A stretch of 64,000 nucleotides of DNA, taken from assembly GCF_003334815.1 (NCBI RefSeq), contig NZ_QOWO01000005.1, one strand, 5' to 3'. A model generated the notes under the pieces. It had not been told where the DNA came from and searched no databases. It was given only the letters and a program-made list of their open reading frames with translations. Numbering within the stretch: position 1 is the first letter of the stretch; each line of letters begins with the position of its first letter. Shown here in pieces: positions 27,017-27,251 of the stretch. The position numbers were made by a program, and so were the translations under genes. Origin of the DNA: Escherichia coli (lineage in GTDB: Bacteria > Pseudomonadota > Gammaproteobacteria > Enterobacterales > Enterobacteriaceae).

Positions 27017-27136
27017 TACCGCCTCTTATCGATTCAACTTGTTGATAATTGTAGCGGAAAAGTGAGGAAGAAGAACTAATTGCTGTGAGAGGTCAAATCA
27101 GAAAAAGGAATAGCGCAGATTGAGGTTTTTGTAAAA

Positions 27137-27156
27137 GGCCGAATGAATATCCGGCC
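27137..27156 (-). terminator. Putative adk terminator hairpin
   Basis: ggccg (27137-27141) / cggcc (27152-27156) with 10-nt loop; U-rich run follows on minus strand (complement of 27121-27136). Confidence 0.45.
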
Positions 27157-27189
27157 TGAGATTGCTGATAAGTTTGCTTGTGCGGGCCT

Positions 27190-27235
27190 GTTCCCCTCAC
27201 CCTAACCCTCTCCCCGAGGGGGCGAGGGGACTGTC
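27190..27235. repeat. GC-rich imperfect palindromic intergenic repeat, box-C-like (family from memory, unverified)
   Basis: ttcccctcaccctaaccctctccccgagggggcgagggga in the adk-hemH spacer; G/C-tract palindromic core. Confidence 0.4.
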
Positions 27236-27251
27236 CGTGCGCGCTTTCGAA

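Follow-up and report, generated by a model that had tools for sequence, protein, structure and literature searches.

A catalogued BoxC repeat lies within the 3′ UTR of adk in the adk–hemH spacer of Escherichia coli K-12

The site was analysed in a window of 64 kb, meaning here the whole stretch of DNA examined (64,000 nt), and positions are those of the window unless K-12 is named. A 501-nt query around the site matched MG1655 and many other strains with 100% identity, and the window is E. coli K-12. K-12 coordinates (c) are obtained from window positions (p) by c = 525071 − p, a conversion that was checked against the sequence, the annotation and the BoxC copies. The genes of the locus are as follows:

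28077–29951, minus strand: htpG (ORF list and K-12 annotation)
27252–27896, minus strand: adk (ORF list and K-12 annotation)
26054–27016, minus strand: hemH (ORF list and K-12 annotation)
plus strand: aes, convergent with hemH

The 3′ ends of hemH and aes overlap by 4 nt (26054–26057), with no intergenic space for a terminator between them. The interval 27017–27251 is exactly the 235-nt adk–hemH spacer, in which the string ttcccctcaccctaaccctctccccgagggggcgagggga was found at 27191–27230, with inverted-repeat arms at 27192–27202 and 27220–27230 (11 nt each, 91% complementary) that make it an imperfect palindrome. Its core has a G+C content of 75% and the 69-nt unit defined below 71%, versus 40% in the remaining spacer. 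REP (PU) units are of the GCCGGATG...CTTATCCGGCCTAC type, and no such unit was present in the K-12 adk–hemH spacer, whereas the Citrobacter spacers at this position have it. An earlier note, made from the sequence alone, had thus rightly described a G/C-rich imperfect palindrome unlike both its flanks and REP; its term ‘palindromic’ holds for the imperfect inverted repeat and understates an architecture of three blocks, and the span that it gave, 27017–27251, marks the spacer bounds exactly, of which the repeat unit takes up only ~27180–27248. For a 22-mer of the element, zero chance matches were expected from 100 shuffles of the window, and the 64 kb contained a single copy of it.

On the minus strand, the sense strand of adk, 27193–27228 reads CCCTCGCCCCCTCGGGGAGAGGGTTAGGGTGAGGGG, with the block layout CCCTCGCCC-CCTCG-GGGAGAGGG-TTA-GGGTGAGGG-G, so that a C-block (CCCTCGCCC) is followed by two G-blocks (GGGAGAGGG and GGGTGAGGG) rather than a plain two-arm palindrome being formed. 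Letter for letter, this is TMECO no. 6, type A mm, at MG1655 497,843–497,878 on the plus strand (Table 1 of Holder et al. 2015, PMC4666352). A regular expression of the BoxC/PIT/TMECO consensus, CCCTCNCCC-N3-6-GGGNGAGGG-N3-GGGNGAGGG[G/T/C/-] (Holder et al., NAR 2015, PMC4666352), matched 27194–27228 on the minus strand, plus the terminal G at 27193. The three names refer to one repeat: BoxC dates from the 1990s (Bergler et al. 1992; Bachellier et al. 1999), PIT element from a second description by Hoyne, Maher and colleagues (Hoyne et al. 2000, according to Holder et al., PMC4666352) and TMECO from Holder et al. (2015). In an independent survey (PMC2267715), BoxC stands among the known stem-loop families of E. 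coli, with 56 bp and 32 copies, and the adk–hemH copy, having 11-nt arms and predicted hairpins, conforms to this stem-loop family of ~56 bp. The name ‘box C’ in the earlier note was therefore correct, and we regard the identity as BoxC/PIT/TMECO as close to certain. Sequence, three blocks, type A ‘mm’, intergenic site and multi-copy occurrence all agree with the published family, and nothing about the element itself differs from it.

The earlier note had also named single-copy occurrence as the outcome that would speak against a repeat. In K-12 (NC_000913.3), 23 of 23 strict BoxC copies were confirmed at their published coordinates, with all 18 loci of Table 1 fetched, and a BLAST search with a 66-nt query against 5,426 complete E. 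coli genomes returned a median of 19 places per genome (maximum 35), so that the motif is multi-copy. The adk–hemH motif is an already known, catalogued BoxC copy, of which the family, the structure, the K-12 copies and the exact copy have all been published. The discovery value is small, given publication of element, family and copy between the 1990s and 2015 and direct tests in which promoter, terminator or in vivo triplex activity was not seen. What is added here is descriptive, namely a longer conserved unit of ~69 nt, read-through of the element into the adk 3′ UTR, the alternative allele families of the spacer and a decay that spares the hairpin.

The element is intergenic, lying between the adk stop codon (27252–27254) and the start of hemH (27016), and the spacer was resolved into the following parts:

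27252–27254, minus strand: adk stop codon TAA, 3 nt upstream of the start of the BoxC unit (ORF list, K-12 annotation and sequence)
27229–27248, minus strand: 5′ flank of the type-A unit, GAAAGCGCGCACGGACAGTC (alignment of 15 K-12 type-A copies)
27193–27228, minus strand: BoxC/PIT/TMECO core, 36 nt, type A mm (Table 1 identity, regular expression, predicted RNA fold and G4 motif)
27220–27228, minus strand: C-block of the core
27215–27219, minus strand: loop 1 of the core
27206–27214, minus strand: G-block 1 of the core
27203–27205, minus strand: loop 2 (TTA) of the core
27194–27202, minus strand: G-block 2 of the core
27193, minus strand: terminal G of the core
27180–27192, minus strand: conserved 3′ flank, AACAGGCCCGCAC (type-A alignment and the paired loci L010, L012 and L013)
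27158–27179, minus strand: tail or linker, AAGCAAACTTATCAGCAATCTC, within a block of ~94 nt (alignments)
27136–27157, minus strand: adk intrinsic terminator hairpin, AGGCCGGAT-ATTC-ATTCGGCCT (inverted repeat, RNA fold and conservation)
27131–27135, minus strand: U-run and mapped adk transcript 3′ ends (Term-seq, Adams et al. 2021)
27094–27251, minus strand: allele-specific segment of 158 nt, comprising BoxC, linker, terminator and 38 nt (allele comparisons)
27017–27093, minus strand: hemH promoter-proximal region, outside the repeat (spacer comparison across 46 loci and alignment)

Aligning the 15 type-A copies of K-12 extended the conservation on both sides of the core, over ~20 nt in the 5′ flank (consensus aAaaa.gYGCnCGnaCgGTC) and over ~13 nt in the 3′ flank (GAACAGGCCnGCA). 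As delimited by this alignment, the conserved unit is ~27180–27248 (~69 nt), about twice the published 36-nt core and not the entire 27017–27251. In the tail, TCAGCAATnTC was found by alignment to be common to the pstA–pstB copy. The adk–hemH element is a singleton, and inverted A/B doublets occur at five other K-12 loci; because the 3′ flank of the single copies equals the start of the A/B spacer in these five pairs, the single copies resemble half-doublets. A stop codon is the nearest gene end to 17 of the 23 K-12 copies, typically 11–54 nt off, and the gene arrangement at the 18 loci is convergent in seven, tandem in nine and divergent in two.

Downstream of BoxC, the hairpin at 27136–27157 has a predicted RNA fold of −13.2 kcal/mol (z = −5.15) and is followed by UUUU. 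Two curated Term-seq 3′ ends, at K-12 497,939 and 497,940 on the plus strand (supplementary files 1 and 3 of Adams et al., eLife 2021, PMC7815308), with a printed flank that contains ...AGGCCGGATATTCATTCGGCCTTTTA..., convert to 27132 and 27131; these are the only Term-seq ends in the spacer, and they fall past this hairpin and its U-run. The supplementary tables of the same study (PMC7815308) hold no entry starting with 4978 and no 3′ end inside or just after BoxC. A scan of the spacer for consensus promoters and terminators found none, and because the four U's of the real terminator are just under the rule of the tool, the adk terminator was identified from its fold and Term-seq. Thus BoxC is transcribed and read through by adk transcription, and since the adk 3′ ends map to the next hairpin downstream, it belongs to the adk 3′ UTR, upstream of the real terminator, and not itself a terminator. 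Concerning the other side of the spacer, conservation among Escherichia, Citrobacter, Salmonella, Trabulsiella, Pluralibacter and further genera was restricted to the final 77 nt ahead of the hemH ATG (27017–27093), and by this conservation BoxC lies outside the hemH control region.

That BoxC serves as the adk terminator, or as a part of the hemH promoter or OxyR control region, is hardly credible. The thought is suggested by a G/C-rich hairpin placed just past adk, in a spacer upstream of hemH, an OxyR-induced gene, and a G/C-rich stem-loop downstream of a gene is indeed what BoxC shares with Rho-independent terminators. However, the BoxC core runs into AACAGGCCC with no U-run and no mapped 3′ end, and BoxC as an intrinsic terminator was rejected as contradicted by Term-seq, the mapped ends belonging to the terminator at 27136–27157; the distance to the hemH ATG is 177 nt with that terminator in between; the cross-genus conservation is confined to the promoter-proximal 77 nt, and BoxC is missing from ~46% of E. 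coli and from the other genera examined; and assays of PIT elements found neither promoter nor terminator activity (Hoyne & Maher 2002, summarised by Holder et al., PMC4666352). The allele-specific segment stops ~77 nt upstream of the hemH ATG, and if the OxyR site reaches further than this, the two E. coli alleles (27094–27251 in the window versus 350–403 in the locus record L002) could differ in peroxide induction. A Rho-dependent termination region has been reported at K-12 498,060 (Rho score 4.0, p = 1e-17; supplementary file 2 of Adams et al. 2021, PMC7815308), corresponding to ~27011, 5 nt inside hemH, which is suggestive of premature termination right where hemH begins.

The spacer is polymorphic. 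Its K-12 type was found in 2,917 of 5,426 E. coli genomes (54%), and in the remaining ~46%, to which Nissle 1917 and an APEC O2:K1:H7 strain belong, the 158 nt that run from the adk stop to 27094 are swapped for a 54-nt segment that is unrelated and has a hairpin of its own, GCAGATCTGC...GCAGGTCTGC. BoxC at adk is therefore dispensable in about half of E. coli. Further states were recorded in sister lineages:

E. albertii and Escherichia sp. MOD1-EC7003: 131-nt allele, BoxC absent, with the unrelated 54-nt segment in its place in E. albertii
E. whittamii: terminator hairpin like that of K-12, 6 nt past the stop codon, BoxC absent, insert of ~560 nt
E. coli E69 and Escherichia sp. E1V33: K-12-type allele with a decayed BoxC that has lost 6–8 nt, among them loop 2 and some of a G-block

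Beside a gene used for MLST, the adk–hemH spacer thus comprises at least three allele families within Escherichia. The adk terminator hairpin is kept in E. whittamii, E69 and E1V33, and relative to E. whittamii the K-12-type alleles have a block of ~94 nt (27158–27251) in excess. Within the K-12-type allele the 66-nt element is nearly invariant, with 2,870 E. coli records at an identity of at least 99%. Contigs encoding an identical Adk protein showed only two E. coli spacer lengths and provided no outgroup. In a spacer comparison of 46 loci, BoxC at adk–hemH was absent in all other genera examined, and the adk-proximal position is occupied by REP/BIME in Citrobacter and one Salmonella subspecies, by an ERIC-like element in L060 (discussed below) and by plain hairpins in others. 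The picture at the htpG–adk spacer is the same.

As the earlier note had proposed, the stability of the hairpin was assessed by folding. The BoxC core gave a predicted hairpin of −23.7 kcal/mol as RNA (z = −2.7) and −10.5 kcal/mol as DNA, and the adk-sense RNA of the 69-nt unit a predicted fold of −34.7 kcal/mol; the z-scores of these RNA folds are modest for a sequence so rich in G/C. An Rfam scan of the spacer yielded chance-level hits only, the best overlap being Antizyme_FSE, which scored 19 bits (threshold 40; E = 0.67). Across genera the BoxC stems are conserved and the loops variable. At three variable mid-block positions, all combinations occur among the copies of K-12 and other genera, with the stems otherwise invariant, and covariation is uninformative in deciding between hairpin and triplex.

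The decayed copies bear more directly on structure. In E69 and E1V33 at adk–hemH and in Nissle and Z135-7 at aaeR–tldD, internal deletions of 6–12 nt remove the third block. At aaeR–tldD most E. coli carry a 6-nt deletion and some a 12-nt one, as judged by spacer length, and a G-block is removed. Despite these losses the variants still fold into hairpins with predicted energies between −17 and −26 kcal/mol, and that of E69 has a perfect 13-bp stem (z = −4.6). E69, E1V33 and Z135-7 are left without two full G-blocks and with fewer than four G-runs, and the Nissle aaeR–tldD variant has lost the first G-block and kept four G-runs. As far as alignments and predicted folds indicate, the hairpin is maintained at orthologous sites and the third block is not, and so, if anything is maintained in this natural decay, it would be the hairpin rather than the triplex, with a bearing on the role and the spread of BoxC elements. 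The presence and absence of BoxC at K-12 loci compare as follows:

pstA–pstB (540–640 in L018 versus L105/L106): clean BoxC-containing indel of 92 nt, AACCGTGT on both sides in K-12 and in one copy in the empty allele
yihR–yihS: segment replacement between filled and alternative allele, the alternative without a simple hairpin
tauD–hemB: segment replacement, alternative allele with a simple hairpin
adk–hemH: segment replacement, alternative allele with a simple hairpin
htpG–adk: segment replacement, alternative allele with a simple hairpin
aaeR–tldD (L014, L109 and L110): deletions of 6 nt (sequenced in Nissle) and 12 nt (sequenced in Z135-7), K-12 intact

The retention of the hairpin in decayed copies, together with the read-through of the element, the strong predicted folds in adk sense (both core and 69-nt unit) and the closeness of 17 of 23 K-12 copies to a stop codon, would agree with a role in RNA, whereby the hairpin in the adk 3′ UTR blocks 3′-to-5′ exonucleases or sets a processed 3′ end, as REP elements stabilise upstream messages. 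We consider such a role unlikely: the curated Term-seq lists contain no processed 3′ end inside or just after BoxC, the orientation to the upstream gene is inconsistent (two sense and three antisense among single copies in tandem contexts), ~46% of E. coli genomes do without BoxC at adk, and the z-scores are modest for this composition.

A role in DNA was proposed by Holder et al., according to which the G-rich strand, when single-stranded, forms a triplex at which replication or repair stalls, the biological function being the genetic variability that follows. TMECO oligonucleotides of types A and B, with and without mismatch, form stable intrastrand purine-motif triplexes in vitro by CD and NMR, DNA polymerase is blocked by TMECO in vitro, and variability at TMECO loci exceeds that at control sites (PMC4666352); the polymorphism of the adk–hemH locus fits with this. 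On the other hand, in vivo DMS footprinting gave no triplex signal, and a duplex is formed when the complementary strand is present (PMC4666352). Because the third block is lost at orthologous sites (in E69 and E1V33 at adk, in most E. coli at aaeR–tldD), the capacity for triplex formation is not maintained, and the variability nearby may instead mark a permissive niche, as REP and ERIC-like elements sit there in other genera. We regard the proposal as distinctly unlikely.

Still less can be said for a G-quadruplex, folded from the G-runs GGGG-AGA-GGG-TTA-GGG-TGA-GGGG in DNA or in adk mRNA and acting as such, which we judge very improbable. The element does contain the sole canonical G-quadruplex motif of the 64-kb window (27193–27215, minus strand; four runs of at least three G with loops of 1–7 nt), and the motif is present in 23 of 23 K-12 copies, so that BoxC may supply a sizeable share of the predicted G4 sites of E. 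coli. However, the C-block alongside is complementary to these G-runs and competes for them, the decayed copies of E69, E1V33 and Z135-7 fall below four G-runs, and the 18 sharp imino signals observed by NMR were stated to be inconsistent with an intramolecular G4 (Holder et al., PMC4666352).

Altogether, the adk–hemH BoxC is probably a non-coding, structure-forming dispersed repeat without a locus-specific function. The lack of a locus-specific function is the weaker half of this reading and is inferred from negative results and from dispensability. On this account a selfish or neutral structured repeat would persist in a tolerant stretch between stop codon and terminator, a niche taken by REP and ERIC elements in other genera; as single-stranded nucleic acid it would form a stable hairpin, the C-block pairing with a G-block, and the repeated G-blocks would give rise to slippage deletions and local sequence turnover. 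The alternative spacer alleles and the collapsed copies of sister lineages would then be present because the G-blocks are prone to such slippage and turnover. Three observations run against parts of this account. The near-invariance of the 66-nt element in E. coli could mean selection rather than recent common ancestry, stem conservation with loop variation across genera is not obviously expected of a purely neutral element, and most comparisons of filled and empty alleles are segment replacements instead of simple indels, which instability does not fully explain.

Not exclusive of a dispersed repeat without local function is the idea that BoxC, especially the A/B doublet, is a REPIN/MITE-like mobile unit inserted by an enzyme acting in trans, the adk copy being a leftover half-unit; in our view this is doubtful, though it deserves some credence. 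In its full form, to which we assign the same tentative standing, a unit of ~85–130 nt (core plus arms, ancestrally an A/B doublet) would be inserted in trans between stop codon and terminator and compete with REP and ERIC for sites, and the ~94-nt adk block (27158–27251) would, if this were true, be an insertion into an E. whittamii-like ancestral arrangement. Several features point in this direction: flanks conserved 20–40 nt past the core, with five K-12 A/B pairs whose spacer matches the singleton 3′ flank; the clean 92-nt presence or absence at pstA–pstB with its AACCGTGT direct repeat; the lack of the ~94-nt block between stop codon and terminator in E. whittamii; and a spread among genera that is patchy and locally dense. 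Against these, a systematic search found no direct repeat flanking BoxC at adk–hemH, and bracketing direct repeats of at least 8 nt occurred at three of 18 K-12 loci versus 6.5% in mismatched-flank controls, which is not significant. Four of the five allele comparisons are replacements and not insertions, BoxC is essentially absent from phages, the E. coli ‘plasmid’ match that was inspected is excised chromosome, and Holder et al. reported neither a transposase or integrase near TMECO nor an association with mobility genes (PMC4666352).

Comparison with other repeat families leads to similar distinctions. With ERIC/IRU and MITE/REPIN elements BoxC shares small size, non-coding character, an inverted-repeat build, strain-variable presence and, at pstA–pstB, a clean indel with an 8-nt repeat, but it is generally without flanking duplications and has no known mobilising enzyme; the inverted doublet that a REPIN has, besides an associated RAYT-type gene, is not found with the adk–hemH singleton. 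REPs are linked to RAYT transposases. REP/BIME (PU) elements are likewise short, G/C-rich, hairpin-forming dispersed repeats just past stop codons, and they fill the adk–hemH and htpG–adk positions in Citrobacter and Salmonella; they differ in their unrelated sequence, BoxC being three-block with no known partner transposase. In copy number BoxC stands ~20-fold below REP (22–32 versus 300–485; PMC2267715).

Some further observations were made on BoxC at other places. The pstA–pstB indel with its 8-nt direct repeat lies inside the pst operon and adjoins a REP element, and over half of the E. coli genomes sampled had its empty form. K-12 copies 3 and 4 (K-12 282,101 and 289,246; L007 and L008) are inside the cryptic prophage CP4-6, copy 3 being 118 nt from the start of yagA, which encodes an integrase-core-domain protein, with a truncated A-type partner just upstream. 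The htpG–adk spacer carries BoxC pairs or arrays in E69 and several other genera; in other Enterobacteriaceae, tandem partial BoxC-like units with repeated longer modules were seen there (8700–9030 in L090 and 1–420 in L075), at a BoxC-like density of 5–6 copies per 12–21 kb in these regions, much above that of E. coli. The family thus extends beyond E. coli to some further Enterobacteriaceae, and 143 copies are reported for Enterobacter asburiae LF7a. Plasmid carriage was considered on the basis of 516 matching records and set aside: the top E. coli records were chromosome-sized and the single one opened was excised chromosome, with matches from Klebsiella, Rhizobium and Azospirillum left out. 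The opened record, NZ_CP110860.1 (L111), is titled ‘plasmid peccDNA113’ and is an excised circular chromosomal fepB–entC segment with its BoxC pair; several other E. coli ‘plasmid’ matches are records of 1–5 Mb, by which plasmid counts for chromosomal repeats are inflated.

Two records from the spacer comparison are noted in addition. In E. whittamii, an ORF of 167 aa (9346–9849 in L035) with a lipoprotein-type signal, MRYLCLLPTGILLLSSLLTGC..., lies in the insert of ~560 nt that separates the adk terminator from the hemH promoter; it was absent in the other Escherichia loci examined. The record L060 is titled ‘Chryseobacterium sp. 18061’ and encodes a HemH 83% identical to that of E. coli in an enterobacterial htpG–adk–hemH synteny, which makes a wrong label or a contaminated assembly probable; the element in its adk–hemH spacer is ERIC-like.
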